From a virus, in UHGV virus genome UHGV-0289470: a DNA stretch of 28,488 nucleotides, one strand, 5' to 3'. The position numbers and the translations under genes were made by a program. Shown piece by piece: positions 1 to 21,953 of the stretch. The notes under the pieces are model-generated. The model was not told the DNA's origin. It saw nothing but the letters and a program-made list of their open reading frames with translations, and searched no databases. How positions within the stretch are numbered: the first letter of the stretch is position 1; each line of letters starts with the position of its first letter.

Positions 1-120
1 GGAATGGCATCAGACATCAGTCCGATTAGTAGGGCTTTTAAGTATGCGCTTGATGAAATCACAAAGAAAAAATCCCCGGCCGCCACCGAGGATTTTAAGC
101 AAATTGATATGCAATTCTGA
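1..120 (+). CDS. cII: cII-like transcriptional activator, C-terminal fragment (5' end lies outside the window)
   Basis: Frame-1 ORF runs off the left edge and stops at TGA 118-120. Its tail ...ITKKKSPAATEDFKQIDMQF resembles the lambda CII C-terminus as I recall it (..KKRPAATERSEQIQMEF). Position immediately upstream of the replication genes fits. Confidence 0.6.
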   Translation, partial: GMASDISPISRAFKYALDEITKKKSPAATEDFKQIDMQF

Positions 121-143
121 GGTCATTACTGGATCAATCCACA
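64..143 (-). ncRNA. oop: oop-like antisense RNA overlapping the 3' end of cII; ends approximate
   Basis: On the minus strand, revcomp of 100-143 contains GATCCAGTAATGACCTCAGAA, matching the 5' part of lambda oop RNA as recalled. Revcomp of 64-96 forms a GC-rich hairpin (plus-strand arms 69-79 and 86-96, one mismatch) followed by UUUUUUCUUUGU, an intrinsic terminator reading leftward. A CATAAT -10-like hexamer on the minus strand (plus 148-153) sits just upstream of the predicted 5' end. Confidence 0.5.
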
Positions 144-152
144 GGAGTCATT

Positions 153-314
153 ATGACAAAACGTCGTAAGAAATACCAGGAAAAAGAAGAGATTCGACAC
201 CCTGATTCACCTGAGGGATTAGTGGTAGCCGCAGCAAATAACAGGGCGTTCGCAGAGCGCCTTGTTGGTGTTTACAGACTAGCCAAAGCAGGAGTGAAAC
301 ATGGGCGTCGTTAA
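153..314 (+). CDS. hypothetical 53-aa ORF (MTKRRKKYQEKEE...); possibly a recombination remnant rather than a gene
   Basis: ATG 153 preceded by AGGAG (143-147). The flanking sequence caggagtcattATGACAAA matches the lambda cII-O junction as recalled, but the reading frame diverges after three codons and stops at 312-314. Overlaps the predicted oop promoter region. Not in the ORF track (<60 aa). Confidence 0.25.
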   Translation: MTKRRKKYQEKEEIRHPDSPEGLVVAAANNRAFAERLVGVYRLAKAGVKHGRR

Positions 315-363
315 GTTAGCTGATTACAGGCATAACCCTGTACAACATCAGGAGGCATCCAGT

Positions 364-1191
364 ATGGGGTATGTCTCTATACACCGCCAGTTTATGGACA
401 GCAGGCTCTATAAGGACTCTCAGGCAGTACATCTTTGGCTTCACTTAATCCTCAAGGCTAATCACGAATCTACTGTCGTCAATACGGATATCGGGCCGAT
501 AACTGTTGATCGCGGTCAGATGATAACTGGACGCCCGTCGCTGGTCAGAGAAACATTCATCCCCGACAACAAAGTTCGGAGCTTATTACGGACTTTTGAG
601 TCGAAAGGGATGCTTAATATTTGCTCGATGGGGAAGAAATTTAGCCTGTTTACAATCTTTAAATATGACGATTTTCAGGCAAAAAATTGTCCAACGGTTG
701 TCCAACGGTTGTCCAACGCAAACACCAGTAATGGCGCGGCTCTCAGCGGAGATTGTCCAACGGTTGTCCAACGGTTGTCCATAAACAATAATATAAATAA
801 TATCTCTAATACTGACGTATTAGAGAGTACCGCAGCAGACAAAAAGTCTGACAAGAAAAAACCTTCCGTTAGCTGTCAGGATGTTGTCGATGCTTACCAC
901 GAAATCCTTCCTGAAGCGCCAAGAATCCGCGCACTGAATGACAAGCGTAAAAACCAGATCCGAACGTTCTGGCGCAAAGCCGGAGTGATAACCCGCCAGC
1001 TTGACGGGCATGGTTTCACGATGCAGGACTGGAGAAATTATTTGAGCTACGTAGGCGAAAATTGCCGATGGATGTTCGAAGAGCGCCCAAACCATCAACG
1101 CGGAACCGTCTGGCACAAAAAGGGATTTGATTTCCTGCTTAACGATAATACCTACCTGAAAGTTCGTGAGGGTGAACACGATGACCGATAA
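364..1191 (+). CDS. replication initiator (O-like replisome organizer with N-terminal winged-helix domain); the origin is embedded in the gene
   Basis: ORF track 301..1191. I prefer ATG 364 because of a strong AGGAGG at 350-355 and because the N-terminus MGYVSIHRQFMDSRLYKDSQAVHLWLHLILKANHE looks like the start of replisome-organizer N-terminal domains. ATG 301 is an alternative start. Iterons lie in the middle of the ORF, as with lambda O. Stop TAA overlaps the helicase start. Confidence 0.75.
   Translation: MGYVSIHRQFMDSRLYKDSQAVHLWLHLILKANHESTVVNTDIGPITVDRGQMITGRPSLVRETFIPDNKVRSLLRTFESKGMLNICSMGKKFSLFTIFKYDDFQAKNCPTVVQRLSNANTSNGAALSGDCPTVVQRLSINNNINNISNTDVLESTAADKKSDKKKPSVSCQDVVDAYHEILPEAPRIRALNDKRKNQIRTFWRKAGVITRQLDGHGFTMQDWRNYLSYVGENCRWMFEERPNHQRGTVWHKKGFDFLLNDNTYLKVREGEHDDR
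687..785 (+). repeat. origin iterons: two clusters of three tandem 11-bp repeats TTGTCCAACGG (687-719 and 753-785), followed by an AT-rich stretch (781-830)
   Basis: Direct read: ttgtccaacgg ttgtccaacgg ttgtccaacgc ... ttgtccaacgg ttgtccaacgg ttgtccataaa, then aaacaataatataaataatatctctaatactgac. This is ori-like architecture inside the initiator gene; the repeats encode the repeated QRLSNG/CPTVVQRLS peptide segment. Confidence 0.75.
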
Positions 1192-2617
1192 TTTTTATGC
1201 GCCGCCCCATAGCATCGAGGCAGAGCAGGCGGTGATTGGTGGATTGCTTCTGGATGATGACAGCAGTGAGCGCGTCCAGAAAGTTCTGGCGATGCTGAAG
1301 CCTGACTCATTTTACTGCCGGCCACACAAAATCCTTTTCGAAGAAATAACCAGAATGCACCGTGAGCAAAAGCCAGTAGATGGCCTGACGCTTTTCGATG
1401 AACTGGAGCGTAAATCGTTAACGGCGTCTGTTGGCGGTTTTGCTTATATCGCTGAGATCGCAAAGAACACGCCAAGCGCAGCAAACATCGTTGCCTATGC
1501 AATGCAGGTTCGTGAAACCGCAATGGAACGCTACGCCATCAACCGCATGACTGAAGCGACGGAATTGCTCTATTCCCGCAACGGAATGACTGCAACGCAG
1601 AAGTACGAAGCTATTCAGGCGATTTTCACGCAACTGACAGACCATGCAAAAACCGGATCGCGTCGCGGCCTTCGTTCATTTGGTGAGGTCATGGAAGACT
1701 GGGTTAGCGACCTTGAGAAGCGATTTGACCCATCAGGCGAACAACGGGGAATGAGCACAGGGATCCCATCGCTGGACAGGATGCTGTCACCGAAAGGTCT
1801 GGTGAAAGGCTCTCTGTTTGTCATTGGCGCTCGCCCTAAGATGGGGAAAACGACGCTATACAGCCAGATGGCAATCAATTGCGCAGTGCATGAGAAAAAG
1901 CCCGCTTTGATGTTCAGCCTTGAAATGCCAGGTGATCAGATACTGGAAAAACTGGTAGGGCAGAAGTCTGGTGTTAACCCGAATATTTTTTACCTTCCGG
2001 CGACAAATGACGCTGATGACGGCTATCAGGGTGATTACGATGGTGCCTTCAACAGGGCGATCGAAACAGCTAATCGCTTGAGTGAAATCGACATGCTTTA
2101 CATCGACGACACGCCGGGATTATCTCTGGCTCAAATCGTCAGCGAAAGCCGTCGAATCAAGCGAGAAAAAGGATGTGTTGGCATGATTCTGGTCGATTAC
2201 CTGACACTAATGACCGCTGAGAAGGCCGATCGCAACGACCTTGCTTACGGCATGATCACCAAAGGACTGAAGAACCTTGCCAAAGAGCTTGATTGCGTTG
2301 TTGTGCTTCTGACGCAGCTTAACCGCGCACTGGAAAGCCGAACCAATAAACGCCCATTACCAAGTGACTCACGAGATACAGGGCAGATTGAACAGGATTG
2401 CGATTATTGGGTTGGGATCCATCGTGAAGGCGCTTTTGATGACAGTGTTCCACCTGGTGAAACCGAACTAATCCTTCGTCTCAATCGTCATGGCAATACC
2501 GGTACGGTGTATTGCATTCAGGCAAATGGCGCTATTTATGACACAGACCAACAGTCTGCTGAAATTCGCCGCCGTGAACGCGAGGAACCGCAGTCCAAGA
2601 AGAAAGGGGGATTCTGA
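1181..2617 (+). CDS. DnaB-family replicative DNA helicase (P22 gene 12-like)
   Basis: ORF track 1166..2617; ATG 1181 overlaps the initiator stop. Walker A GARPKMGKTT, N-terminal DnaB-like domain (HSIEAEQAVIGGLLLD), length about 478 aa. Confidence 0.9.
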   Translation: MTDNFYAPPHSIEAEQAVIGGLLLDDDSSERVQKVLAMLKPDSFYCRPHKILFEEITRMHREQKPVDGLTLFDELERKSLTASVGGFAYIAEIAKNTPSAANIVAYAMQVRETAMERYAINRMTEATELLYSRNGMTATQKYEAIQAIFTQLTDHAKTGSRRGLRSFGEVMEDWVSDLEKRFDPSGEQRGMSTGIPSLDRMLSPKGLVKGSLFVIGARPKMGKTTLYSQMAINCAVHEKKPALMFSLEMPGDQILEKLVGQKSGVNPNIFYLPATNDADDGYQGDYDGAFNRAIETANRLSEIDMLYIDDTPGLSLAQIVSESRRIKREKGCVGMILVDYLTLMTAEKADRNDLAYGMITKGLKNLAKELDCVVVLLTQLNRALESRTNKRPLPSDSRDTGQIEQDCDYWVGIHREGAFDDSVPPGETELILRLNRHGNTGTVYCIQANGAIYDTDQQSAEIRRREREEPQSKKKGGF

Positions 2618-2646
2618 TGACCATCTACATCACTGAGCTAATAACA

Positions 2647-2677
2647 GGGGCTATTTACACAGTAGCCCTTTTTTATT
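2647..2677 (+). terminator. rho-independent terminator downstream of the helicase gene (tR2-like position)
   Basis: Stem GGGCTA (2648-2653) / TAGCCC (2663-2668), 9-nt loop, then TTTTTTATT (2669-2677). Confidence 0.55.
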
Positions 2678-2701
2678 GGATTGGAAGTGAGAGGTAATAG
2701 C

Positions 2702-2869
2702 GTGAGTGAACCATCTAAACATACGCAGTATTTCCCATTCTGCCAGCGTCATATTGAGCCTGAGCGAGATGATTTAGGCGATCTGTACATTACACATGAA
2801 GGCGGATTTATTTATGTGCACGACGAAGTACTACACGATGACGATTACACATTTACGCCACTTAACTAA
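2702..2869 (+). CDS. hypothetical small acidic protein (accessory slot)
   Basis: ORF track 2681..2869 (TTG start). GTG 2702 with GAGG at 2691-2694 is the more plausible start. No recognisable domain. Confidence 0.35.
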   Translation: MSEPSKHTQYFPFCQRHIEPERDDLGDLYITHEGGFIYVHDEVLHDDDYTFTPLN

Positions 2870-2893
2870 CATCCAGCACTCTGATGGAGAGGA

Positions 2894-3094
2894 ATGATGA
2901 CAACGATTGGCGTTCTTTACGACGAGTGGACGAAAGAGCGATTCAGGCGTCATTACAAGATGGCAAAGGTCATCCGCAACAAGCCCTATCGCAATGACTA
3001 CCGCAAGGTCATGGCAAAAAACATGCAGAAGAATATCGACAAGATATTCCCACGTGGAAAGGCCGTTTGGCGCTTACTTAAAAACGAGTGGTGA
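2894..3094 (+). CDS. hypothetical small basic protein (accessory slot)
   Basis: ORF track; ATG 2894 or 2897 after GGAGAGG (2886-2892). Lys/Arg-rich 66 aa, no recognisable domain. Confidence 0.45.
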   Translation: MMTTIGVLYDEWTKERFRRHYKMAKVIRNKPYRNDYRKVMAKNMQKNIDKIFPRGKAVWRLLKNEW

Positions 3095-3908: not shown

Positions 3909-4432
3909 CTATCAAATCAAATACGCCAGCGTCAGATAGGTATCGGCTTATTGAGGATTATCTGTATTTAGACGGAGATACAGTCAGATACAAAAAGGAC
4001 TCGCTAAAACACCCCAACCACAGCCACCGGGCAGGAGATGAAATTAAAACATCGATAAATGGATCTGGGTATAGACAGGTGTGTTTTGCAGGCATTCAGA
4101 TGTTTGTTCACGTAGTTGTTTTTGCGCTGCACAACAAAAGAATGCCATTGAAAAATATTGACCATATTAACGGAAACAGGCTGGACAATTCCCCAAAAAA
4201 TCTTAGGGAGGCAGGCCGGATAGCAAACAGCCGAAATCAGAAAACTAAGTGCAATAGCCGTTCTGGAATAAAAAATGTTTTATGGAACAAGCAAAAAAAT
4301 AAATGGGCCGTTCAAGTGCGCACAGATTTTGGCCGGTTGTATTTTGGGCTCTATGAAGATCTTGAACTTGCTTGTTTGGTTGCCAGTGAGGCTATCAACA
4401 AATATCACGGACAATATGCGAAGGTTGTATGA
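3905..4432 (+). CDS. HNH homing-type endonuclease with C-terminal AP2-like DNA-binding domain
   Basis: HNH motif ..NIDHINGNRLDNSPKNLR..; C-terminal segment KWAVQVRTDFGRLYFGLYEDLELACLVASEAINKYHG is typical of AP2 domains. ATG overlaps the ninB stop (ATGA). Confidence 0.7.
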   Translation: MTIKSNTPASDRYRLIEDYLYLDGDTVRYKKDSLKHPNHSHRAGDEIKTSINGSGYRQVCFAGIQMFVHVVVFALHNKRMPLKNIDHINGNRLDNSPKNLREAGRIANSRNQKTKCNSRSGIKNVLWNKQKNKWAVQVRTDFGRLYFGLYEDLELACLVASEAINKYHGQYAKVV

Positions 4433-4959
4433 TTAAGCATAAATCAGAAACACCAAAAGAAGTTAGAGACTGCTGGCAAACGCCGCTTTGGCTTTTTGAT
4501 GCACTGGATATTGAGTTTGGATTCTGGCTGGATTCGGCAGCGAGCGACAAAAATGCTCTGTGCGCTCACTGGTTAACTGAGGCCGACGACGCGCTAAATT
4601 CTGAGTGGATAAGCCACGGTGCAATCTGGAATAACCCACCGTACAGCAATATCAGGCCGTGGGTGGGAAAAGCCGCTGAGCAGTGCATACAACAGCGACA
4701 GACGATAGTGATGCTTGTGCCAGAGGATATGTCTGTCGGATGGTTCAGCAAGGCTCTGGAGAGTATTGACGAAGTTCGCATCATTACTGATGGACGGATT
4801 AATTTTATCGAACCATCGACAGGGCTGGAGAAGAAGGGAAACAGCAAAGGCTCAATGCTACTGATTTGGCGACCGTTCATCAGTCCTCGACGGATGTTTA
4901 CTACCGTATCCAAAGCGGCATTGATGGCGATCGGGCAGGGCGTCAGGAGGGCGGCATGA
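4429..4959 (+). CDS. phage DNA N6-adenine methyltransferase (Dam-like, NPPY motif)
   Basis: Motifs [15 protein letters not shown]...DSAAS...NPPYS are typical of the phage N-6-adenine-methyltransferase family. Start overlaps the HNH stop. Confidence 0.7.
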
Positions 4960-9404: not shown

Positions 9405-9690
9405 CGGCAGTACCACGAAGCAACCCAAGCCAGTAAGTGGGGAAATAACACTGGCAGCCACTGAAAGATGAACCTCCTGCCTTATGGCAAAAAAGATTCT
9501 TTGTGGTGGCGGACTGATGGAAAGACATCGGTTATTGCAGAGGCCATTCAATGAGTGGTCTCGACAATGGCTTATACCCTGCACGGGATAACTTAACTGA
9601 TATCCCTTTTAACGGATAAACGGAGCCAACAATGGCAGAGAATGTCGGCATTATGGCAGTGAAATTTGGATAAATCGGAGATTAGTACAT

Positions 9691-10041
9691 ATGCCGCCAC
9701 GAATCCCAAAAGCCTGCCGTGCTCGAGGTTGCCGTAATACCACGACAGACCCGTCAGGCTACTGCGAAAGCCACAAAAGCGAAGGCTGGAAGCAATACAA
9801 GCCAGGACAATCCCGTCATCAGCGCGGCTACGGTTCGAAGTGGGACGTTATCCGTGCGCGTGTGCTGAAACGTGACAAAGGCCTGTGTCAGTTATGTCTG
9901 CGTGCCGGGATGGTGCGTGAAGCTAAAACCGTTGACCACATCATCCCTAAAGCGCATGGCGGCACCGATGCAGACAGTAATCTGCAGAGCCTGTGCTGGC
10001 CGTGCCATAAGGCGAAGACGGCCCGTGAACGGTTGAAGTGA
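9691..10041 (+). CDS. HNH endonuclease associated with the terminase (HK97 gp74-like)
   Basis: Cys-rich N-terminus, HNH core ..VDHIIPKAHGG..N.QSLCWPCH..; immediately upstream of TerS. Confidence 0.8.
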   Translation: MPPRIPKACRARGCRNTTTDPSGYCESHKSEGWKQYKPGQSRHQRGYGSKWDVIRARVLKRDKGLCQLCLRAGMVREAKTVDHIIPKAHGGTDADSNLQSLCWPCHKAKTARERLK

Positions 10042-10067
10042 TAATAATTCTCAACTGCCTGAGGGGA

Positions 10068-10127
10068 GGGGCGGGTCAAATCCCTGCGGCCTGACGTCTT
10101 CCGGACTGCCCGCCCCATCGTTTTTTT
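10068..10127 (+). other. GC-rich imperfect palindrome plus T7 tract between HNH and terminase genes; terminator and/or cos-associated site
   Basis: GGGGCGGG (10068-10075) pairs with CCCGCCCC (10109-10116) around an internal GACGTC-centred sub-palindrome, followed by TTTTTTT (10121-10127). Confidence 0.4.
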
Positions 10128-10166
10128 ATACCCGCGAAAAATGAAATTTAACCAGGAGTGCCGCAT

Positions 10167-10661
10167 ATGGCTGGAACGGCGGGGCGTTCCGGGCGTCGCC
10201 CCAAGCCAACGGCGCGCAAGGCGCTGGCCGGAAACCCCGGCAAGCGAGCCCTGAACAAAGATGAACCTGTTTTTACGCCCATCAAAGGTGTTGAGCCACC
10301 AGAGTGGTTCGCTGAAGAAGATCTCCCTCTCGCCACGATCATGTGGCAACTGACAACCAAAGAACTCTGCGGTCAGGGCCTGTTGTGCGTGACTGACCTC
10401 GCGGTGCTTGAGCGGTGGTGCGTGGCCTATGAGTTCTGGCGACGTGCCGTGAAAAATATTGCCATACAGGGCAACACCATCACCGGTGCAATGGGCGGCA
10501 GGGTCAAAAATCCGGAGCTGACCGCCAAAAAAGAACAGGAGTCCGAGATGAGCAGCACGGGGGCAATGCTCGGACTCGACCCCAGCAGCCGCCAGCGTCT
10601 GATTGGCCTGGCGGGGCAGAAGAAAGCCACTAACCCGTTTCTGAAAATCATCGAGTCATGA
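10167..10661 (+). CDS. terminase small subunit (P27 family)
   Basis: ORF track 10158..10661; ATG 10167 after AGGAG (10154-10158). N-terminus [30 protein letters not shown] is typical of P27-family TerS. Confidence 0.75.
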
Positions 10662-12391
10662 GCCGGAAATCTTACCCCAACGTAAATGCTGCCAATCAGT
10701 ATGCCCGTGATGTTGTGCGCGGAAAGATTGTGGCCTGCCAGTTTGTGATTCAGGCCTGCCAGCGCCATCTTGATGACCTGATGGCGGAAAAAAGTAAGTC
10801 GTTTCGTTACCGCTTCGACAAGGACCTGGCTGAACGGGCCGCCAAATTTATTCAGCTGTTGCCGCACACCAAGGGTGAGTGGGCATTTAAACGGATGCCC
10901 ATCACGCTGGAGCCGTGGCAGCTATTTGTGATCTGCTGTGCGTTTGGCTGGGTCAATAAAGGGTCCCGGCTGCGCCGCTTCCGGGAGGTGTATACCGAAA
11001 TCCCCCGTAAGAACGGCAAATCGGCAATCTCTGCCGGTGTTGCCCTGTATTGTTTTGCCTGTGATAACGAGTTTGGCGCGGAAGTGTATTCCGGTGCCAC
11101 GACAGAGAAACAGGCGTGGGAAGTCTTTCGCCCGGCGCGACTGATGTGTAAACGCACACCCATGCTGACGGAAGCGTTCGGGATTGAGGTTAACGCCTCA
11201 AACATGAATCGTCCGGAGGATGGCGCGCGGTTTGAACCGCTGATCGGTAACCCCGGTGATGGTTCATCACCCCACTGTGCGGTGGTGGATGAATATCACG
11301 AGCACGCCACCGATGCGCTTTACACCACGATGCTTACCGGGATGGGGGCGCGACGTCAGCCACTGATGTGGGCCATTACTACTGCCGGGTACAACATTGA
11401 GGGGCCGTGCTACGACAAGCGGCGGGAAGTCATCGAGATGCTCAACGGCTCGGTGCCCAACGATGAACTGTTCGGGATCATCTATACCGTTGATGAAGGT
11501 GACGACTGGACCGACCCGCAGGTGCTGGAAAAAGCCAATCCAAATATTGGCGTGTCGGTTTATCGCGAATTTTTGTTAAGTCAGCAGCAGCGTGCGAAAA
11601 ATAACGCCCGTCTGGCAAACGTCTTTAAAACAAAACACCTCAATATCTGGGTGTCGGCGCGTTCGGCGTATTTCAACCTGGTGAGCTGGCAGAGCTGCGA
11701 GGATAAATCACTGACCCTTGAGCAGTTCGAGGGGCAGCCGTGCATTCTGGCCTTTGACCTGGCGCGTAAGCTGGATATGAACAGCATGCCGCGACTTTAT
11801 ACCCGCGAGATTGACGGTAAAACGCATTACTACAGTGTGGCCCCGCGTTTCTGGGTACCGTATGACACGGTGTACAGCGTCGAGAAAAATGAAGATCGAC
11901 GGACAGCCGAACGCTTTCAGAAATGGGTGGAAATGGGCGTCCTGACCGTTACCGATGGTGCAGAGGTGGATTATCGCTACATCCTCGAAGAGGCCAAAGC
12001 GGCGAACAAAATCAGCCCGGTCAGCGAGTCACCCATCGACCCCTTCGGGGCGACCGGGCTCTCACATGACCTTGCTGATGAAGGCCTGAACCCCGTCACC
12101 ATCATTCAGAACTACACCAACATGTCCGACCCGATGAAAGAGCTGGAAGCGGCAATTGAATCGGGGCGCTTTCATCATGATGGCAATCCCATCATGACCT
12201 GGTGTATCGGCAACGTGGTCGGCAAAACCATTCCGGGTAACGATGATGTGGTGAAGCCCGTCAAAGAGCAGGCGGAAAACAAAATCGATGGTGCAGTTGC
12301 GCTGATTATGGCGGTTGGCAGAGCCATGCTGTACGAGAAAGAAGACACGCTGTCTGACCACATTGAATCCTATGGGATCCGCTCGCTTTAA
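10658..12391 (+). CDS. terminase large subunit
   Basis: 577 aa, HK97-type large-terminase architecture (N-terminal ATPase, C-terminal nuclease); start overlaps the TerS stop. Confidence 0.85.
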
Positions 12392-12402
12392 CTGAGGTAA
12401 TT

Positions 12403-12585
12403 ATGATCATGCTGATTCTCGCGCCTCTGGTGGGCGTGCTGGGTGCGCTTTTGCTGGTGTATGGTGCCTGGCTGATTTATCCCCCGGCGGGGTTTGTTGT
12501 TGCCGGGGCGCTGTGCCTGTTCTGGTCGTGGCTGGTGGCGCGATATCTCGACCGTACACAGCCGTCTGTCGGCGGAGGTAAATAG
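12403..12585 (+). CDS. small hydrophobic (two-TM) membrane protein
   Basis: 60 aa, almost entirely hydrophobic ([26 protein letters not shown]...); GAGGT RBS. Confidence 0.4.
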
Positions 12586-13826
12586 TGTTCTTTTCGGGAT
12601 TATTTCAACGAAAAAGTGACGCACCGGTGACCACGCCAGCAGAGCTGGCGGATGCTATCGGGCTGTCATATGACACCTATACCGGAAAGCAGATCAGCAG
12701 CCAGCGGGCCATGCGACTGACGGCGGTTTTTTCCTGCGTCAGGGTGCTGGCTGAGTCGGTCGGGATGTTGCCCTGCAACCTGTATCACCTGAACGGCAGC
12801 CTGAAACAGAGAGCCACCGGCGAACGTCTGCATAAACTGATCTCCACGCATCCCAATGGCTATATGACGCCGCAGGAGTTCTGGGAGCTGGTGGTCACCT
12901 GTCTGTGCCTGCGGGGAAACTTTTACGCCTACAAAGTGAAAGCATTTGGCGAAGTGGCTGAACTGCTGCCCGTCGATCCCGGCTGTGTGGTACCGAAGCT
13001 TAACAGTAGCTGGGAGCCGATCTATCAGGTCACATTCCCGGATGGCTCCACGGATGTACTGAGCCAGGAGGATATCTGGCATGTGCGCACGCTGACGCTG
13101 GATGGACTGGTGGGGCTGAATCCCATAGCCTATGCCCGCGAGGCAATATCGCTGGCGGCAGCGACCGAAGAGCACGGGGCCAGACTGTTCAGCAATGGCG
13201 CGGTGACGTCGGGTGTGTTGCGTACAGAGCAGACGCTGTCAGATCAGGCTTATGAGCGCCTGAAGAAAGATTTTGAGGAGCGTCACACCGGGCTTGGCAA
13301 TGCTCACCGCCCGATGATCCTTGAGATGGGGCTGGACTGGAAGTCGATGGCGCTGAACGCCGAGGACAGCCAGTTCCTGGAAACCCGCAAGTTTCAGCTT
13401 GAAGAAATCTGTCGTCTGTTCCGGGTGCCGTTGCACATGGTGCAGAACACCGATCGAGCCACCTTCAACAATATCGAAGAGCTGGGGCTGGGATTTATCA
13501 ACTATTCACTGGTGCCGTATCTGACCCGCATCGAACAGCGGATCAACACCGGACTGGTACGAAAAAGTAAGCAGGGCGTTTATTACGCCAAATTTAACGC
13601 CGGGGCGTTACTGCGCGGGGATATGAAGTCCCGTTTTGAAGCCTACGCCACCGGGATCAACTGGGGAATTTACTCTCCCAATGACTGCCGCGACCTGGAA
13701 GATATGAATCCGCGTCCCGGTGGTGATGTCTATCTCACACCGATGAACATGACCACGAAACCCTCCGATGGCAGTAAAGCCGGTAAGCAGAAGGATAACG
13801 CCAATGCAGACGAAACAACGTCTTGA
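12585..13826 (+). CDS. portal protein (HK97 family)
   Basis: 413 aa; GTG start with GGAGG 6 nt upstream; position and size right for an HK97-type portal. Confidence 0.8.
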   Translation: MFFSGLFQRKSDAPVTTPAELADAIGLSYDTYTGKQISSQRAMRLTAVFSCVRVLAESVGMLPCNLYHLNGSLKQRATGERLHKLISTHPNGYMTPQEFWELVVTCLCLRGNFYAYKVKAFGEVAELLPVDPGCVVPKLNSSWEPIYQVTFPDGSTDVLSQEDIWHVRTLTLDGLVGLNPIAYAREAISLAAATEEHGARLFSNGAVTSGVLRTEQTLSDQAYERLKKDFEERHTGLGNAHRPMILEMGLDWKSMALNAEDSQFLETRKFQLEEICRLFRVPLHMVQNTDRATFNNIEELGLGFINYSLVPYLTRIEQRINTGLVRKSKQGVYYAKFNAGALLRGDMKSRFEAYATGINWGIYSPNDCRDLEDMNPRPGGDVYLTPMNMTTKPSDGSKAGKQKDNANADETTS

Positions 13827-14454
13827 TGTACCGCTGAGTCTGAAATCTGTCAGTGACTCCGGTGAGTTTGAAGGGTATGGCTCCGTCTTTGGTGTAAAGG
13901 ACAGCCACGATGATGTGGTGATGTCCGGGGCATTTGCTGCTTCCCTGCGGGCGTGGAGTGACAGAAAAGCGTTACCTGCGCTGCTCTGGCAGCACCGCAT
14001 GGATGAACCCATCGGTGTTTACACCGAAATGAAGGAAGACGATGTCGGGCTTTACGTCAGGGGACGGTTGCTTATTGATGATGATCCCCTCGCAAAACGC
14101 GCACATGCACACATGAAGGCCGGTTCGTTAACCGGCCTTTCTATTGGGTACGTCCTGAAAGACTGGGAATACGACCGGAGCAAAGAAGCCTTTCTGCTGA
14201 AAGAAATCGACCTCTGGGAAGTCAGCCTGGTGACGTTCCCGTCTAACGACGAGGCGCGGATCAGCGACGTCAAGAACGCACTGGCCCGCGGGGAAATCCC
14301 CGAACAGAAAAAAATCGAAAGAGTCCTGCGTGATGTCGGACTCTCCCGTACCCAGGCCAAAGCATTCATGGCCGGGGGCTATGGCGCACTGTCCCTGCGC
14401 GACGCTGAGGATGTGGGCTCTGCACTGAATGCACTGAAAAATCTGAACTTCTAA
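13804..14454 (+). CDS. prohead maturation protease (HK97 family, S78)
   Basis: ORF track 13768..14454; ATG 13804. Motifs ..GYGSVFGVKDSHDDVV..GAF.. typical of prohead proteases; overlaps the portal 3' end. Confidence 0.8.
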   Translation: MQTKQRLDVPLSLKSVSDSGEFEGYGSVFGVKDSHDDVVMSGAFAASLRAWSDRKALPALLWQHRMDEPIGVYTEMKEDDVGLYVRGRLLIDDDPLAKRAHAHMKAGSLTGLSIGYVLKDWEYDRSKEAFLLKEIDLWEVSLVTFPSNDEARISDVKNALARGEIPEQKKIERVLRDVGLSRTQAKAFMAGGYGALSLRDAEDVGSALNALKNLNF

Positions 14455-14468
14455 TCAGGATAAATACG

Positions 14469-15674
14469 ATGGCGGTTGATATTAAAGATGTCGAACAGGT
14501 CGCGCAGGAGCTGCAGCAGAAGTTTGACGACTTCAAAGCAAAGAACGACAAGCGCGTGGATGCGATTGAGCAGGAAAAATGCAAGCTTGCCGGGCAGGTG
14601 GAAACCCTGAACGGGAAACTCAGCGAGCTGGAAAACCTCAAAAGCGATCTTGAAAAAGAGCTGCTTGAGCTGAAACGTCCGGCAGGTGGTGCGCAAAATA
14701 AACTGGCCACCGAGCATAAAGAGGCGTTTGTGGGCTTCCTGCGTAAAGGCCGTGAAGACGGTCTGCGCGATCTGGAGCGTAAGGCATTGCAGGTGGGTAC
14801 CGATGAAGACGGTGGCTACGCCGTGCCGGAAGAATTGGATCGCAACATTCTTAACCTGCTGAAAGATGAAGTGGTGATGCGTCAGGAAGCCACGGTGATC
14901 ACCGTTGGCGGTTCCGACTACAAAAAACTGGTGAATCTGGGCGGCACGGCTTCCGGATGGGTGGGGGAAACGGATACGCGATCCCAGACTGCCACCTCCA
15001 GACTGGAGCTGATTGAACCTCTCATGGGGGAAATCTACGGCAACCCGCAGGCCACCCAGAAAATGCTGGACGATGTCTTCTTCAACGTGGAGGCCTGGAT
15101 CAACAGCGAGCTGGCAACCGAATTTGCCGAACAGGAAGAAATTGCCTTTACCTCAGGCGATGGCACCAAGAAGCCGAAAGGGTTCCTGGCGTATGAATCC
15201 ACTGATGAAACCGATAAGGTCCGGGCGTTCGGCAAACTTCAGCATATTGTATCCGGCGAAGCGACTGCGGTGACCGCAGACGCCATTATCAAACTGATTT
15301 ACACGCTGCGTAAGGCACACCGCACTGGCGCGAAGTTCATGATGAACAACAACAGCCTGTTTGCCATCCGTCTGCTGAAAGACAGCGAGGGTAATTATCT
15401 GTGGCGTCCGGGGCTGGAGCTGGGGCAGCCGTCCTCTCTGGCGGGTTACGGTATCGCTGAAAACGAACAGATGCCGGATATCGCCGCTGATGCGAAAGCC
15501 ATTGCATTTGGTAACTTCAAACGGGGTTACACCATCGTTGACCGTATCGGCACCCGCATTCTGCGTGACCCGTACACCAATAAACCGTTTGTCGGTTTTT
15601 ATACCACCAAGCGCACCGGCGGGATGCTGGTCGATTCGCAGGCCATCAAACTGCTGAAGATTGCAGCGGCGTAA
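14469..15674 (+). CDS. major capsid protein (HK97 fold) with N-terminal coiled-coil delta/scaffold domain
   Basis: 401 aa; the first ~100 aa are coiled-coil-rich (QELQQKFDDFKAKNDKR...LEKELLELKR), followed by a capsid core. Confidence 0.85.
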   Translation: MAVDIKDVEQVAQELQQKFDDFKAKNDKRVDAIEQEKCKLAGQVETLNGKLSELENLKSDLEKELLELKRPAGGAQNKLATEHKEAFVGFLRKGREDGLRDLERKALQVGTDEDGGYAVPEELDRNILNLLKDEVVMRQEATVITVGGSDYKKLVNLGGTASGWVGETDTRSQTATSRLELIEPLMGEIYGNPQATQKMLDDVFFNVEAWINSELATEFAEQEEIAFTSGDGTKKPKGFLAYESTDETDKVRAFGKLQHIVSGEATAVTADAIIKLIYTLRKAHRTGAKFMMNNNSLFAIRLLKDSEGNYLWRPGLELGQPSSLAGYGIAENEQMPDIAADAKAIAFGNFKRGYTIVDRIGTRILRDPYTNKPFVGFYTTKRTGGMLVDSQAIKLLKIAAA

Positions 15675-15681
15675 TCACTCA

Positions 15682-15702
15682 GGGGCGTGGAACCGCGCCC
15701 CC
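15682..15702 (+). other. GC-rich stem-loop just after the capsid gene (no U-tract)
   Basis: GGGGCG (15682-15687) / CGCCCC (15696-15701). Confidence 0.4.
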
Positions 15703-15723
15703 TGTTCTGACGGGTGAAGAATC

Positions 15724-15924
15724 ATGATCCTGAAACAAGATCTGAAATGGTCACCGGACGGTATGCGTGTTGAGGTCATTCGGGCCGGTGAGTATGACGA
15801 CGGGGCGCTTCCTGCCCGGGTGCAGGAGATTGCACTTCAGGCCGGGTTAGCAGAGCGCGGAACCAGTGCAAAAAGCAGTAAAGCGACAAAAGAGAAAAAA
15901 GCCACGACCAGTAAAGAGGGCTGA
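15724..15924 (+). CDS. hypothetical small protein with Lys/Ser/Thr-rich tail
   Basis: ORF track; 66 aa; sits between capsid and connector genes. Confidence 0.35.
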   Translation: MILKQDLKWSPDGMRVEVIRAGEYDDGALPARVQEIALQAGLAERGTSAKSSKATKEKKATTSKEG

Positions 15925-15926
15925 GT

Positions 15927-16250
15927 ATGCTTCTGACAATGGAAGAGATTAAAGCCCAACTCCGGCTGGATGAGGATTTCGATGCTGATGACCGCCATCT
16001 GCAACTGCTGGCCTGTGCGGCGCAAAAGCGGACGGAAACGTATCTGAACCGGAAGCTCTATGCTCCGGATGAAACCATTCCGGACAGCGATCCGGACGGG
16101 CTGCACCTGCCGGATGATATTCGTCTGGGGATGCTGATGCTTATCAGCCATTTTTACGAAAACCGCTCGTCGGTTACGGAAGTGGAGAAACTCGACATGC
16201 CGCAGAGTTTTGGCTGGCTTGTCGGCCCGTACAGGTACTTTCCGCAATGA
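15927..16250 (+). CDS. head-tail connector protein (gp6-like)
   Basis: 107 aa; N-terminus MLLTMEEIKAQLRLDEDFDADD.. is typical of the gp6-like connector family. Confidence 0.65.
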   Translation: MLLTMEEIKAQLRLDEDFDADDRHLQLLACAAQKRTETYLNRKLYAPDETIPDSDPDGLHLPDDIRLGMLMLISHFYENRSSVTEVEKLDMPQSFGWLVGPYRYFPQ

Positions 16251-16657
16251 AAATTCGTCAGGCGCAGACCAGCGCAACCTACATTCTGCCGGACCCCGGC
16301 GAACTGAATAAACGCGTCCTGATCCGCCAGCGGGTGGATATGCCCGCGGATAACTTTGGCGTGGAGCCTCAATACCCGGTTGCGTTCCGGGCATGGGCGA
16401 AGGTTATCCAGACCAGTGCCACCACCTGGCAGGAAACCGCGCAGACCGGAGATGCCATCACCCATTACATCACCATTCGTTACCGCCGGGGGATCACTGC
16501 TGATTATGAGGTGGTCTGTGATGACAGTGTGTACCGGGTGAAACGTCAGCGTGATCTGAACGGGGCGCGGCGCTTTCTGTTGCTGGAGTGTACAGAGCTG
16601 GGCGAATTTACGCAGAGTCACGGAGGCAGCAATGGCGACTCCCTTTTTGCACGTTGA
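16247..16657 (+). CDS. head closure / head-tail adaptor protein
   Basis: 136 aa; ATGA overlap with the upstream gene; position in the neck module. Confidence 0.55.
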   Translation: MKIRQAQTSATYILPDPGELNKRVLIRQRVDMPADNFGVEPQYPVAFRAWAKVIQTSATTWQETAQTGDAITHYITIRYRRGITADYEVVCDDSVYRVKRQRDLNGARRFLLLECTELGEFTQSHGGSNGDSLFAR

Positions 16658-17138
16658 TGTTCAGCAGCCCGCGGAGATGCGCTTTAACCGCGCCCGTGTC
16701 CGGCGGGCGTTTGTCACGATTGGGCAGCGTCATATGCGTGATGCCCGTCGGCTGGTGATGCGCCGTGCGCGGTCGGCACCGGGTGAAAACCCCGGTTATC
16801 AGACCGGACGCCTGGCTCGTTCGATTGGTTATATGGTGCCGAGAGCCAGTAAAAAGCGAGCCGGTTTTATGACACGCATTGCCCCTAACCAGCGCAACGG
16901 GAGGGGGAACCGGATGATCTCTGGTGACTTCTATCCGGCGTTTCTGTTTTTTGGTGTCCGGGGAGGAGCAAAACGTCGTCGTAGTCATCATCGTGGTGCA
17001 TCCGGTGGCAGCGGCTGGCGACTGGCTCCACGTAATAACTTCATGGTGGAAACTCTTGAAAAGAACCGCAGCTGGACACGCTATTTTCTGGCGCGGGAAT
17101 TGCGTAAATCACTGAAGCCGGAGCGACGACACAGATGA
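16632..17138 (+). CDS. HK97 gp10-like neck/tail-completion protein
   Basis: 168 aa, Arg-rich; CGGAGG RBS at 16621-16626. Confidence 0.5.
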   Translation: MATPFLHVDVQQPAEMRFNRARVRRAFVTIGQRHMRDARRLVMRRARSAPGENPGYQTGRLARSIGYMVPRASKKRAGFMTRIAPNQRNGRGNRMISGDFYPAFLFFGVRGGAKRRRSHHRGASGGSGWRLAPRNNFMVETLEKNRSWTRYFLARELRKSLKPERRHR

Positions 17139-17695
17139 AACTGACGCCTGTTATTGCTGCACTGCGTGCCCGCTGTCCGTATTTTGAAAACCGGGTTGCA
17201 GGCGCGGCCCAGTTCAAAAATCTGCCGGAGGTCGGAAAGCTGAAACTCCCGGCGGCATATGTTGTACCGGGTGATGATTCTCCGGGAGAAAACAAAAGCC
17301 AGACCGACTACTGGCAGGAGCTGAAAGAGGGTTTCTCCGTGGTTGTCATACTGAGTAACGGGCGTGATGAGCGCGGTCAGTTTGCTTCGTATGATGTGGT
17401 GGACGATGTCCGGCAGATGCTCTTTAAGGCCCTGCTGGGCTGGAACCCGGAGGCGTGCGGTAACCCGATTACCTATGACGGCGGCACGCTGCTGGATCTG
17501 AATCGTCATGAGCTGATTTATCAGTTCGATTTTTCGGTCATCAGCGAGCTGACCGAAGACGATACCCGCCAGCAGGATGACCTGAACAGTCTGGATGAAC
17601 TGCGAACGCTGGCGATTGATGTTGATTATCTCGATCCCGGTAACGGGCCTGACGGCGATATCGAACATCACACCGAAATAACCCTTCCTTCCTGA
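17135..17695 (+). CDS. tail-proximal virion protein (Mu gp37/DUF1834-like)
   Basis: 186 aa; lies just upstream of the sheath gene in Mu-like order. Confidence 0.45.
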   Translation: MKLTPVIAALRARCPYFENRVAGAAQFKNLPEVGKLKLPAAYVVPGDDSPGENKSQTDYWQELKEGFSVVVILSNGRDERGQFASYDVVDDVRQMLFKALLGWNPEACGNPITYDGGTLLDLNRHELIYQFDFSVISELTEDDTRQQDDLNSLDELRTLAIDVDYLDPGNGPDGDIEHHTEITLPS

Positions 17696-17703
17696 GGATC
17701 CTC

Positions 17704-17874
17704 ATGTTTGTCAAACCTGTTAAAGGGCGGTCAGTGCCTGACCCTGCCCGCGGCGACCTTTTGCCTGCCGAAGGGCGAAATGTTGACGAGAACAACTACT
17801 GGCTGCGCCGTGAAGCAGCGGGTGATATCCGGCGCGTGAATAAAAAGGTGAATACCGATGACGATAAGCTTTAA
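17704..17874 (+). CDS. small conserved protein upstream of the tail sheath (DUF2635-like)
   Basis: Not in the ORF track (56 aa). ATG 17704, stop TAA 17872-17874, overlaps the sheath start. Product MFVKPVKGRSVPDPARGDLLPAEGRNVDENNYWLRR... Confidence 0.4.
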   Translation: MFVKPVKGRSVPDPARGDLLPAEGRNVDENNYWLRREAAGDIRRVNKKVNTDDDKL

Positions 17875-19354
17875 CACCATTCCGTCGAATACGCTGGTTC
17901 CGTTGTTTTATGCGGAAATTGATAACCAGGCGGCGAATACTGCACAGGACAGCGGAGCATCGCTGCTGATTGGTCATGCCAATAACGGTGCAGAGATTGT
18001 TGCCAACAGTCTGGTGCTGATGCCATCGGCAGACTATGCACGCCAGATTTGTGGTGCGGGAAGTCAGCTGGCGCGTATGGTCGAGGCTTATCGCCAGACC
18101 GACCCGTTTGGTGAACTGTATGTGATTGCCGTTCCTGAATCCACGGGCGCGGCGGCAACAGTTACGCTGACGGTGACCGGCGCGGCAACCGAAACCGGCA
18201 CGGTGAATGTTTATGTGGGACGTACCCGCGTGCAGGCACCGGTGACCAACGGCGATAACGTCGCGACGATTGCCAGCAGTATCCAGGATGCCATCAATGC
18301 CGTTCCGACCCTGCCGTTTACGGCCTCATCTTCGGCTGGCGTGGTCACACTGACCGCGCGTCATAAGGGGCTTTGCGGGAATGAAATTCCTGTCAGCCTC
18401 AATTACTACGGCTTTGGTGGGGGCGAAGTGCTGCCAGCGGGCGTACAGATTGCCGTGGCGACGGGTACCGCCGGAACGGGCGCTCCTGTTCTCACCGGCG
18501 CGGTGGCTGCAATGGCGGATGAGCCGTTTGATTATATCGGCCTGCCGTTCAACGACACGGCCTCCGTTAACACGCTGGTGACCGAGATGAACGATACCAG
18601 CGGTCGCTGGAGCTATGCGCGTCAGCTGTATGGTCATGTGTATACGGCAAAGATCGGCACGCTGTCAGAACTGGTGACCGCAGGTGACCAGTTTAACCAG
18701 CAGCACATTACCCTGGCGGGATACGAAAAAGAGACCCAGACGCCTGCCGACGAACTGGCGGCAAGCCGTACCGCCCGCGCAGCGGTGTTTATTCGCAACG
18801 ATCCGGCACGTCCCACGCAGACCGGTGAGCTGGTGGGTATGCTGCCTGCGCCGAAGGGGAAACGGTTCACGATGACCGAGCAACAGACCCTGCTGTCTCA
18901 TGGCGTGGCAACGGCGTATGTCGAAAGCGGGGTGCTGCGCATTCAGCGTGATGTCACCACGTACAGGAAAAACGCTTACGGTGTTGCGGATAACAGCTAC
19001 CTCGACAGCGAGACGCTGCATACCAGCGCGTATGTGCTGCGCAAACTGAAATCCGTCATTACCAGTAAGTACGGGCGTCACAAGCTTGCCAGCGACGGTA
19101 CCCGCTTTGGTCCCGGTCAGGCGATTGTCACACCGGCGGTGATTAAAGGGGAACTGCTGGCAACCTACCGTCAGCTTGAGCGTGCGGGGATCGTGGAAAA
19201 CTACGAACTGTTTAAGCAGTACCTGGTTGTGGAGCGTGATGCCAGCGATCCGAACCGCCTGAACACGCTGTTCCCGCCTGACTATGTTAACCAGTTGCGT
19301 GTCTTTGCCGTGGTTAACCAGTTCCGTCTTCAGTATTCAGAGGAGTCTGCATAA
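17858..19354 (+). CDS. contractile tail sheath protein (Mu gpL-like)
   Basis: 498 aa; size and position upstream of the tube gene. Confidence 0.8.
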   Translation: MTISFNTIPSNTLVPLFYAEIDNQAANTAQDSGASLLIGHANNGAEIVANSLVLMPSADYARQICGAGSQLARMVEAYRQTDPFGELYVIAVPESTGAAATVTLTVTGAATETGTVNVYVGRTRVQAPVTNGDNVATIASSIQDAINAVPTLPFTASSSAGVVTLTARHKGLCGNEIPVSLNYYGFGGGEVLPAGVQIAVATGTAGTGAPVLTGAVAAMADEPFDYIGLPFNDTASVNTLVTEMNDTSGRWSYARQLYGHVYTAKIGTLSELVTAGDQFNQQHITLAGYEKETQTPADELAASRTARAAVFIRNDPARPTQTGELVGMLPAPKGKRFTMTEQQTLLSHGVATAYVESGVLRIQRDVTTYRKNAYGVADNSYLDSETLHTSAYVLRKLKSVITSKYGRHKLASDGTRFGPGQAIVTPAVIKGELLATYRQLERAGIVENYELFKQYLVVERDASDPNRLNTLFPPDYVNQLRVFAVVNQFRLQYSEESA

Positions 19355-19710
19355 TGGCCCGTATCGGGGGAACCTGTTATTTCAAAATTGACGGTCAACA
19401 GCTATCGCTGACCGGCGGCATTGAGGTGCCCATGAACAGGACGGTTAATGATGACATCATCGGCCTGGACGGTTCAGTGGACCGCAAGGAAACTCACCGT
19501 GCACCTTATGTCAAAGGGACCTTCAAGGTGCCGAAGAATTTTCCGGTGAGCAAAATCACCTCGTCTGATGAGATGACCATCACTGCCGAGCTGGCGAACG
19601 GTCAGGTCTATGTACTGTCGTCTGCCTGGCTGCACGGCGAAGCGAACCATAATGCCGAAGAAGGTACGGTTGATCTTGAGTTCCACGGTGAAGAAGGGGA
19701 TTACCAGTAA
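19354..19710 (+). CDS. tail tube protein (Mu gpM-like)
   Basis: 118 aa, directly after the sheath gene. Confidence 0.75.
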   Translation: MARIGGTCYFKIDGQQLSLTGGIEVPMNRTVNDDIIGLDGSVDRKETHRAPYVKGTFKVPKNFPVSKITSSDEMTITAELANGQVYVLSSAWLHGEANHNAEEGTVDLEFHGEEGDYQ

Positions 19711-19979
19711 TGAAAGAGCTTGAGTTAAAGAAACCTATTACTGCTCATGGCGAGACACTCTCCGTACTTGAGTTTGATGAGCCAACCGGGAAAGATGTCC
19801 GCGAACTGGGGTATCCCTACCAGATGAATCAGGATGAGTCAGTCAGACTTCTGGCGCATGTGGTGTCGAAATACATTGTGCGGCTGGCGAAAGTGCCGCA
19901 AAGCTCTGTCGACCAGATGTCTCCGGCAGACCTGAATGCAGCGGCGTGGCTTGTGGCTGGTTTTTTCCTCCAGGCCTGA
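19710..19979 (+). CDS. tail assembly chaperone (G-like, short form)
   Basis: 89 aa, immediately upstream of the tape measure gene; contains a slippery site near its 3' end. Confidence 0.7.
   Translation: MKELELKKPITAHGETLSVLEFDEPTGKDVRELGYPYQMNQDESVRLLAHVVSKYIVRLAKVPQSSVDQMSPADLNAAAWLVAGFFLQA
19961..19967 (+). other. programmed -1 ribosomal frameshift slippery heptamer T_TTT_TTC
   Basis: In the chaperone frame the codons are ..GGT TTT TTC..; a -1 slip enters the 19946..20128 frame, which stays open to 20128. Confidence 0.55.
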
Positions 19980-20128
19980 CGGCTGAATACCTCACTGATC
20001 GCTTCTTTGACTGCGCCAGCTACTGGCGCATTAATCCCTTCGAATTGCTGAATATGCCGATCAGTGAAATTCCCTTGCTGGTCAGTCAGGCAAACAGGAT
20101 AGAGCAGGAGAAACGCACACATGGCTGA
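19961..20128 (+). CDS. -1 frame extension of the tail assembly chaperone (GT-like long form)
   Basis: ORF track 19946..20128, overlapping the 3' end of the chaperone; ends a few nt into the tape measure gene. Confidence 0.5.
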   Translation, partial: FFPPGLTAEYLTDRFFDCASYWRINPFELLNMPISEIPLLVSQANRIEQEKRTHG

Positions 20129-21953
20129 ATTTGAGCTTAAGGCGTTGATCACCGGTGTCGACAGGCTTTCTCCCGCGCTGTCGAAAATGCAAAAGAAAAT
20201 CCGGGGATTTAAACGCCAGGCGGAAGAAGCGTCACAGGGTGGGCTGGCGCTTGGTGGAGGACTGGCAGCGGGGCTGACGCTTTCCCTGAAATCTTATGCC
20301 GATCAGGAAAACGCCGCTACCGGGCTGAAAGTCGCCATGATGGATGCGAACGGCGAGGTTGGAAAGAGCTTTCAGGACATCAATAAACTGGCTATTGGCC
20401 TGGGTAACCAGCTACCCGGTACAACGGCTGATTTCCAGAACATGATGCAGATGCTGGTGCGTCAGGGGATCCCGGCAGAAAACATTCTGGGTGGTGTGGG
20501 TAAAGCGACAGCTTATCTTGCGGTACAACTGAAAAAAACACCGGAAGCGGCTGCTGAGTTTGCTGCAAAGATGCAGGATGCTACCGGAACGGCGTCAGAA
20601 GACATGATGGGGCTGTTCGACACTATCCAGAAGGCGTTTTATCTGGGCGTTGACGATACCAACATGTTGTCCTTCTTCACTAAAACCAGTTCTGTTCTGA
20701 AGATGGTGAACAAGGACGGTCTTCAGGCTGCACAGAGCCTTGCCCCCATCAGCGTCATGATGGATCAGATGGGGATGAACGGGGAGTCGGCAGGTAATGC
20801 CCTGCGAAAAGTTATCCAGTCCGGATTAAGTGTTAAGAAAATCAGGGACGTCAATAAAGTCATGGCCCGCCAGAAACTCGGGGTACAGCTCGATTTTACT
20901 GACGGCAAAGGAAGTTTTGGCGGTCTTGATAACATGTTCAGGCAACTGGCAAAGTTGCGAAAACTGACCGACGTTAAGCGAACAGGCGTACTTAAGGCAA
21001 TATTTGGTGATGATGCCGAAACCCTTCAGGTGGTCAATGCCCTGATCGATAAAGGAAAGGATGGTTACGATCAGATCCAGCAGAAGATGAATAAACAGGC
21101 CAGCCTGAATAAACGTGTTCAGGCACAGCTTGGTACGCTGTCCAACCTGTGGGAGGCAATGACGGGGACCGCAACTAACGGTCTTGCAGCTATTGGCGGC
21201 GCATTTTCTGGTGACGCTAAAAATATCACGCAATGGCTGGGGGAGTTGGGGGAAAAATTCACGAAGTTTGCGGATGAAAATCCCCGGGTTATTCGCGGCG
21301 TCGTCGGGCTTGCTGCCGGTCTTGCGATTCTGAAACTGGGATTGATGGGCGTGGGCAGTGCCATCAGTATTGTCAGCAGGATTATGTCGATGACGCCGAT
21401 TGGCATGATTGCGACGGCGATTGCTCTGGCTGCGGGATTAATTATCACTAACTGGGATGTTGTCGGACCTTATTTTAAGAAGCTCTGGGAAACCATTGGT
21501 CCTTATTTTGAGGCTGGCTGGGAACTTCTGAAGAAAGTTTTTGCCTGGTCGCCGCTGGGAATGGTGATCAATAACTGGGGACCGGTTGTTAAGTGGTTTC
21601 AGGATATGTGGGACAAGCTGAAGCCAATTATTGAGTGGTTTACCGACAGTTCCGGTGACACGGTCGATGCCATTAACTCTGCGCAGTGGGGCGCGGGTGC
21701 TTATGATGCTTATGGGACGGGAATACCGACGCGGGGATACACACCTTATCCGGCGGTGGATCCGGCTCAGTCAAACAACGCCTCCGATGCCACAGGCTCG
21801 AATCCCTTCATGATTAACAAAGCTTCTGTGCCAAAAGTTGATGGTGAGATCAAGGTATCTTTTGTGAATTCGCCTCCGGGTATGCGGGTTATGGAAACGC
21901 GATCCAGCGGTTTTGATGTCAGCCATGATGTTGGCTATACGCGGTTCAGGTAG
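20121..21953 (+). CDS. tail tape measure protein
   Basis: 610 aa, Ala/Gly-rich helical protein with transmembrane-like central segments, downstream of the chaperone pair. Confidence 0.85.
   Translation: MAEFELKALITGVDRLSPALSKMQKKIRGFKRQAEEASQGGLALGGGLAAGLTLSLKSYADQENAATGLKVAMMDANGEVGKSFQDINKLAIGLGNQLPGTTADFQNMMQMLVRQGIPAENILGGVGKATAYLAVQLKKTPEAAAEFAAKMQDATGTASEDMMGLFDTIQKAFYLGVDDTNMLSFFTKTSSVLKMVNKDGLQAAQSLAPISVMMDQMGMNGESAGNALRKVIQSGLSVKKIRDVNKVMARQKLGVQLDFTDGKGSFGGLDNMFRQLAKLRKLTDVKRTGVLKAIFGDDAETLQVVNALIDKGKDGYDQIQQKMNKQASLNKRVQAQLGTLSNLWEAMTGTATNGLAAIGGAFSGDAKNITQWLGELGEKFTKFADENPRVIRGVVGLAAGLAILKLGLMGVGSAISIVSRIMSMTPIGMIATAIALAAGLIITNWDVVGPYFKKLWETIGPYFEAGWELLKKVFAWSPLGMVINNWGPVVKWFQDMWDKLKPIIEWFTDSSGDTVDAINSAQWGAGAYDAYGTGIPTRGYTPYPAVDPAQSNNASDATGSNPFMINKASVPKVDGEIKVSFVNSPPGMRVMETRSSGFDVSHDVGYTRFR

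Follow-up and report, generated by a model that had tools for sequence, protein, structure and literature searches.

A putative iteron origin of the Sf6/HK620/phage L type lies within the initiator gene of a mosaic lambdoid phage, next to a DnaB-family helicase gene

The stretch of viral DNA analysed here (the window, 28,488 nt) carries at positions 687–826 what is very probably, with a probability of about 0.85, the vegetative (theta-type) origin of a lambdoid prophage or phage, placed within its own initiator gene, where the linker is encoded. The module that holds it is an ordinary lambdoid replication module of the Sf6/HK620/phage L type, which has already been annotated and published. An origin embedded in the initiator gene had been proposed in a first-pass annotation of the window, and the proposal is supported, at the level of sequence comparison, by the annotation of Sf6, HK620 and phage L, by the phage L genome paper, by signs of selection on the DNA itself and by a geometry that recurs in about 40 loci. 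The features on which the argument turns are the following, in window coordinates:

153–314, plus strand: conserved 53-aa ORF overlapping the start of the initiator gene (phrog_1331, E=1e-37)
301–1191, plus strand: initiator gene, 296 aa, 'O-like' by position and layout (phrog_345)
687–719, plus strand: iteron triplet 1, with TTGTCCAACGG at 687 and 698 and TTGTCCAACGc (one mismatch) at 709
720–752, no strand assigned: non-repeat spacer of 33 bp, defined by the spacing of the iterons
753–785, plus strand: iteron triplet 2, with TTGTCCAACGG at 753 and 764 and a truncated copy, TTGTCCAtaaa, at 775
782–802, no strand assigned: AT-rich tract, presumed DNA-unwinding element, with 1 G/C in 21 nt
803–826, no strand assigned: perfect dyad, putative third origin element, TCTCTAATAC-TGAC-GTATTAGAGA, with arms at 803–812 and 817–826
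1181–2617, plus strand: DnaB-family replicative helicase gene, 478 aa from the ATG at 1181, overlapping the end of the initiator gene

The 11-bp unit, TTGTCCAACGG, was delimited to blocks 687–718 and 753–781 by a repeat search and by Tandem Repeats Finder, which agree. A pattern search of the whole 28.5-kb window, allowing at most one mismatch, retrieved five copies (at 687, 698, 709, 753 and 764) within a span of ~90 bp and no copy elsewhere. By chance, 0.54 matches would be expected, and five were reached in none of 100 shuffles. The start-to-start distances between successive iterons are 11, 11, 44, 11 and 11, which places all six on a single 11-bp lattice, and the 33-bp spacer holds the two triplets both in 11-bp register and in a common reading frame (66 bp, or 22 codons). 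The sixth iteron (775–785) retains the 7-nt core alone, so that the correct count is five full iterons and one truncated; the first-pass count of six 11-bp iterons in two triplets therefore stands for the lattice and the two triplets and needs correcting for the last copy. Tandem Repeats Finder detected no further repeat cluster within the window, and a scan for DnaA boxes found none near the putative origin, with counts at chance level. The AT-rich tract adjoins the iterons, and GC content drops to 0.30–0.32 in 60-nt windows around it. Iterons and tract all fall inside the initiator ORF, as had been claimed. The interval originally singled out, 687–830, also takes in the dyad, which went unmentioned at that stage.

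The initiator matches phrog_345, labelled 'replication initiation O-like', over its full length (aa 1–296, E=3e-85). Its AlphaFold2 model, built on a shallow alignment, consists of a confident N-terminal domain (aa ~24–125, helix-helix-strand / helix-helix-strand), a segment with pLDDT below 50 (aa 126–188) and a confident helical C-terminal domain (aa 189–293). The low-confidence segment corresponds to nt 676–864 and coincides with the origin region, which supports reading it as a disordered linker. Within it, both 33-bp iteron triplets encode the same peptide, CPTVVQRLS (aa 130–138 and aa 152–160), in agreement with the earlier statement that the iterons encode a repeated peptide linker.

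Family assignment of the initiator was less straightforward. It has no Pfam family at E≤0.01 (raising the limit to 10 returned only a sub-threshold DUF7376, E=0.01), no NCBIfam match and, in a sequence search, no PDB match at E≤1. A Foldseek search of the model against the PDB retrieved winged-helix DNA binders with weak scores (E≥0.03), while the comparison with viral models returned proteins named 'replisome organizer', DnaD-domain protein or replication initiator, with E values down to 2e-10. On these matches the modelled N-domain can be placed in the winged-helix DNA-binding fold class, within which we assign no family. Over aa 22–189 the initiator also matches PHROG families that bear the label 'DnaD-like helicase loader' (E=3e-23), and its N-domain shares 25–31% identity with proteins of Staphylococcus, Lactobacillus, Vibrio and Shewanella phages.

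Membership in the lambda O family (PF04492) was not supported. The N-domain gave no match to the Pfam profile PF04492 (Phage_rep_O) even at E≤10, while the positive controls, lambda O and P22 gp18, matched it with E=6e-36 and E=7e-38, and the profile of the initiator family aligned to lambda O with an hhalign probability of 0.2%, that is, no relation. The same profile gave only a low-probability hhalign alignment with P22 gp18. The C-terminal third of the initiator weakly resembles the gp18 C-terminus (25% over 116 aa, E=2e-4), and its C-domain shows no similarity to lambda O, whose partner is a loader. The initiator is best described as an analogue of lambda O by layout, not as a demonstrable member of its family; since no relation to lambda O or to the P22 gp18 N-domain is detectable, an 'O-like' mechanism rests on analogy.

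The gene following the initiator encodes a DnaB-family helicase with both expected domains (PF00772, DnaB N-terminal, E=4e-31; PF03796, C-terminal, E=9e-60), a score of 581 bits against TIGR03600 phage_DnaB (cut-off 499) and intact NTPase motifs (P-loop ARPKMGKT, ILVDY, QLNR and IEQD). The downstream nin-region ORFs up to Q (NinB, HNH, Dam, NinF, YbcO, RusA and Q) include no loader or primase. No lambda P- or DnaC-type loader module is seen, the helicase being the next gene and the nin region up to Q being free of a loader. The Pfam and TIGR03600 matches, together with the composition of the nin region, bear out the first-pass claim that a full DnaB-family helicase, rather than a lambda P-type loader, follows the initiator. 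The helicase is 32% identical to P22 gp12 (for which PMC8022706 cites Wickner 1984) and, by analogy with that protein, would substitute for the host helicase. A lambda hybrid carrying repP22 (P22 genes 18 and 12) grows on dnaB-GrpD55, an allele that blocks lambda P-dependent initiation (PMC3349717).

Several other features of the window were recorded alongside the replication genes. The window starts with the end of a cII-like gene, followed by the ORFs at 153–314, 301–1191 and 1181–2617. The first of these ORFs is homologous to Sf6 gene 42 and has a positional counterpart in P22 orf48; it is annotated in Sf6, L and P22 and also present in four surveyed loci (L044–L047). It always accompanies the Sf6/HK620/L-type module and is absent in lambda; its membership of the replication module is uncertain. 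On the minus strand, 69–160 forms an oop-like antisense element, with a terminator hairpin (96 to 69) followed by a T tail and a block (128–160) in agreement with the 33-bp conserved 5' consensus of pO/oop given in PMC3349717; a search of positions 1–3000 at E≤0.1 gave no Rfam family match for it. A tR2-like intrinsic terminator, annotated in Sf6 and HK620, lies just past the helicase gene (2646–2670), in the short NinA-like ORF region. The HNH endonuclease ORF (PF13392, 3905–4432), flanked by NinB and the gene for a Dam-type N6-adenine methyltransferase (4429–4959), is a possible mobile insertion into the nin region. The late region (9690–25000) is 97% identical to the structural genes of SfII/SfI/SfV-type myoviruses (sheath, tape measure), and the window therefore represents a mosaic phage, in which a lambdoid/P22-like early-right operon is combined with a contractile-tail module.

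The close relatives of the module are well known. The first 2.7 kb of the window are 98–99% identical to the coliphages mEp506, HK75, HK106, mEp234 and others, and the replication module is 98% identical to that of Shigella phage Sf6 and 92% identical to that of Salmonella phage L. In tblastn comparisons, the initiator shares 98.6% identity with its Sf6 counterpart, 83% with those of L and ST160 and 65–66% with those of HK620 and HK022. Sf6 (genes 43/44), HK620 and HK022 (O/P) and L and ST64T (homologues of genes 18/12) carry the same gene family in the same module, with helicases 98–99% identical to that of the window and the same arrangement of 3+3 iterons (11 bp each), AT tract and dyad. 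Sf6 is essentially identical to the window, from which it differs by two point differences in the iterons. HK620 and HK022 show a mosaic joint, in which a nearly identical C-domain (96–98%) and helicase (99%) are combined with an N-domain that shares 48% identity with that of the window and with another iteron core, TACCAGCA.

The repeat block of these relatives has been annotated as an origin in the databases, in every case as 'putative'. The Sf6 record describes it as 'rep_origin, putative; repeat region reminiscent of the phage lambda origin; similar to phage HK620', and the records of HK620 and phage L carry rep_origin features at the corresponding place. In the genome paper on phage L, of 2020, a set of six 11-bp repeats (TGTCCAACGGA) within gene 18 was put forward as the probable origin (PMC8022706), and the window iteron is that published repeat, with the core TGTCCAACGG. 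A search of the literature for experimental tests of the 11-bp iteron class returned only this paper, and no demonstration of origin activity or of binding by the initiator. The paper also recounts older genetics of P22/L exchange, where the whole replication region swaps and single genes do not (PMC8022706).

The homologous gene was surveyed in 8 phages and 33 bacterial genomes (as part of prophages in many Enterobacterales), with the ST-29 locus (L009) dropped on account of an ORF truncated by a frameshift or an assembly problem. Of the 38 loci matched over the full length, 35 have, in succession, three iterons, a 33-bp spacer, three further iterons, an AT tract and a perfect dyad with 9–11-nt arms. 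The 66-bp offset between triplets was likewise found in 35/38 full-length-match loci, the named exceptions being L029, L030 and L040–L043. The AT-rich tract is present at the matching position in all surveyed relatives, with an AT content of 0.77–0.87 over 30 nt and a length of ~20–25 bp. L029 and L030 are off the 11-bp lattice. In L029, a Leclercia MAG, ATTACCA repeats occur at 12-bp spacing in triplets 68 bp apart (L029:2410–2510), with the same AT tract and dyad.

The dyad at 803–826, identified by repeat search, has 10-nt arms around a 4-nt centre and occupies the same homologous position in every locus surveyed. Folded as a single-stranded DNA hairpin, it has an energy of −7.9 kcal/mol (z = −5.0 versus shuffled controls). 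Among 16 distinct variants aligned on their centres, 10 of 11 pairs differ on both sides, and the inner nine pairs are Watson–Crick in 144/144 cases, with zero G-T intermediates; slid-alignment controls gave only 35–50% pairing, the alignment itself being made from the best palindrome per locus and so biased towards pairing. The changes alter the encoded residues, which read ISNTDVLES, NSLTNVRES, ISSTDVEES or LLPNGSKYV, and, judged from these alignments, the dyad appears to be preserved by compensatory changes at an amino-acid cost. In lambda, a dyad with 12-nt arms (92% complementary) lies directly right of the AT tract, and P22 has a CCCCCT/AGGGGG dyad at the equivalent position. A dyad is, thus, found at that place in all three lambdoid origin types compared, namely lambda, P22 and the Sf6/HK620/L-type family.

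The dyad might instead belong, together with a T-rich stretch on the minus strand, to an intrinsic terminator of leftward (antisense) transcription, or form an RNA hairpin, and be no element of the origin. We consider this improbable. It is true that a terminator scan raised a minus-strand flag at the dyad, that in the record of phage L an automatic 'terminator' feature has been placed at this point and that the hairpin is stable relative to shuffles. However, the stem contains only three G-C pairs, and a set of pairs that is Watson–Crick throughout, with no G-T/G-U intermediates, is more easily reconciled with a dyad in DNA than with an RNA stem. Moreover, lambda and P22 have their dyads in the equivalent position, within origins that have been annotated or defined by experiment, and no Rfam family matched in positions 1–3000 at E≤0.1.

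The number of iterons varies in nature. Initiator homologues of 274, 296 and 318 aa are found in databases, according to whether the 66-bp unit, which comprises three iterons and a spacer and encodes 22 aa, is present once, twice or three times, so that otherwise near-identical prophages carry 3, 6 or 9 iterons. Copy-number alleles are seen at L045:2187–2350 and L047:2187–2219, as compared with 687–785 in the window, and the 3-iteron allele is widespread among E. coli and Shigella contigs. We met no earlier description in the literature of the 3/6/9-iteron alleles or of the 12-bp spacing in Leclercia. The existence of natural 3-iteron alleles implies either that six iterons are dispensable or that 3-iteron prophages are replication-defective.

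Such variation in number could also be expected if the iterons were mainly regulatory or titration sites for the initiator (for copy-number control, handcuffing, autoregulation or the exclusion of related phages) rather than the site of strand opening, a reading to which we give a small chance, slightly below that of a terminator at the dyad. Lambda iterons on a plasmid are known to inhibit rep-lambda phages in trans (PMC3349717), and each triplet of the window has a weak promoter-like match on the minus strand (TGGACA-18-GACAAT). Against this, promoter-like matches occur at chance level (4 found, 4.1 expected), and the constant adjacency of an AT tract and a dyad, as in the lambda and P22 origins, argues for an origin. 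Titration is, in any case, compatible with origin function and does not exclude it.

The way in which the iterons vary points to selection on the DNA. The cores differ by group (TGTCCAAC, TACCAGCA, TGCCAACA, TGTCCAGCC and AATCCAA), and the peptide encoded by a triplet varies with its core (CPTVVQRLS, CPTDVQRMS, VPADYQQIT, VPTECQQSA and CPADVQPVS). Within a locus the cores are invariant, whereas the encoded residues vary between loci (V to D, R to Q and others), and the variable iteron bases are always the 3–4 nt between cores, regardless of codon position. As 11 bp do not make up a whole number of codons, the copies of each triplet are read in three frames. Constancy of the cores per locus, differences in the encoded residues and a period that is out of frame together suggest that it is the DNA, not the peptide, that is under selection. 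That the repeats arose as a protein-level tandem duplication of a linker peptide, with no DNA function and with the origin elsewhere, is very improbable: both triplets do encode the same 9–10 residues (CPTVVQRLS) and a disordered linker does tolerate a 22-aa insertion or deletion, but peptide selection can neither create nor maintain an 11-bp period with copies in three frames, the DNA cores stay constant per locus while the encoded residues vary among relatives, and the window has no second repeat cluster.

The survey also bears on cognate specificity. Where the core is that of the window (6 loci), the N-domain shares 74–99% identity with the window N-domain; where the core is another (25 loci), it shares 39–55%. 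In these sequences, the iteron core changes together with the initiator N-domain, as cognate specificity would predict. In L042:1554–2321 and L043:1566–2333, N-domains unrelated to that of the window are joined to the same C-domain family (NCRWMLEDRP motif), and the helicase gene still follows. The combination of unrelated N-domains with one C-domain family indicates domain shuffling at the origin-encoding linker. A DnaB-family helicase gene comes directly after the initiator in nearly every locus, and in most of those surveyed the match to the helicase overlaps the last 4–7 nt of the match to the initiator C-domain. This pattern fits a division of labour in which the N-domain would read the iterons and the C-domain would handle the helicase. 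Across loci, C-domain and helicase identities to the window are not significantly correlated (Spearman 0.19); since their divergences are uncorrelated, co-inheritance gives no support for a specific contact between the two, and it is their constant adjacency and the analogy with known systems that suggest one.

The P22 architecture is shared: an origin inside gene 18 with iterons, AT-rich tract and short dyad, then the DnaB-like gene 12 and no loader. P22 differs in its gp18 N-domain, which belongs to Pfam Phage_rep_O, unlike that of the window initiator, and in its four iterons of ~20 bp and unrelated sequence. Lambda, too, has its origin midway along the initiator gene, in the part encoding the O linker that connects the DNA-binding N-domain to the C-domain responsible for recruitment (PMC7466680), and it shares the order of elements: iterons, AT-rich tract and a dyad with 12-nt arms. 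However, the four lambda iterons are 18 bp long, have internal dyad symmetry and are spaced 20–24 bp from start to start, whereas the six of the window are 11-bp units arranged head to tail. As the window iterons lack this internal symmetry, binding stoichiometry may differ from that of the O-some. Lambda O belongs to PF04492, to which the window initiator has no detectable homology, and lambda P hijacks the host DnaB, whereas the next gene in the window encodes a DnaB-family helicase itself. A possible likeness to SPP1-type G38P and to DnaD-like initiators of Gram-positive phages is suggested by the fold matches to viral models named 'replisome organizer' or DnaD-domain protein (E down to 2e-10). 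The SPP1 origin, too, lies within gene 38, and the phage has a helicase of the DnaB type (G40P). It differs in having a separate loader (G39P), and the C-domains differ from that of the window initiator.

From the sequence anatomy, homologies, domain layout and comparative conservation described above, we infer initiator binding, unwinding, helicase recruitment and origin activity along the following lines. The N-terminal winged-helix domain of the initiator would bind the 11-bp direct repeats, which would lie on approximately one helix face in two clusters of three. The resulting nucleoprotein complex would strain and open the adjoining AT-rich tract. The C-terminal domain would then directly recruit the phage DnaB-type hexameric helicase, with no lambda P-type or DnaC-type loader, and the helicase would act alongside host primase and DNA polymerase III. 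The dyad to the right of the AT tract would be the third conserved element, either as a hairpin once single-stranded or as a symmetric protein site. A bolder proposal, which we rate as unlikely, is that the covarying dyad and the initiator C-domain may load the DnaB-type ring without a dedicated loader, and that the 66-bp unit, in one, two or three copies, may dial origin strength.

For the window itself, these results carry little weight, given that it holds a near-identical copy of an annotated and published module. The module family, in turn, offers clean natural variation for work on how initiators of the P22 and HK022 types place a DnaB-type ring helicase on DNA with no loader, in the form of swapped N-domains and matching cores, 3, 6 or 9 iterons and a covarying dyad. 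It could be used for annotating prophage origins and for predicting groups of replication incompatibility or specificity among lambdoid and Stx prophages. If loading by the dyad and C-domain and the iteron dial were true, the family would provide a tractable system for loader-independent DnaB loading.
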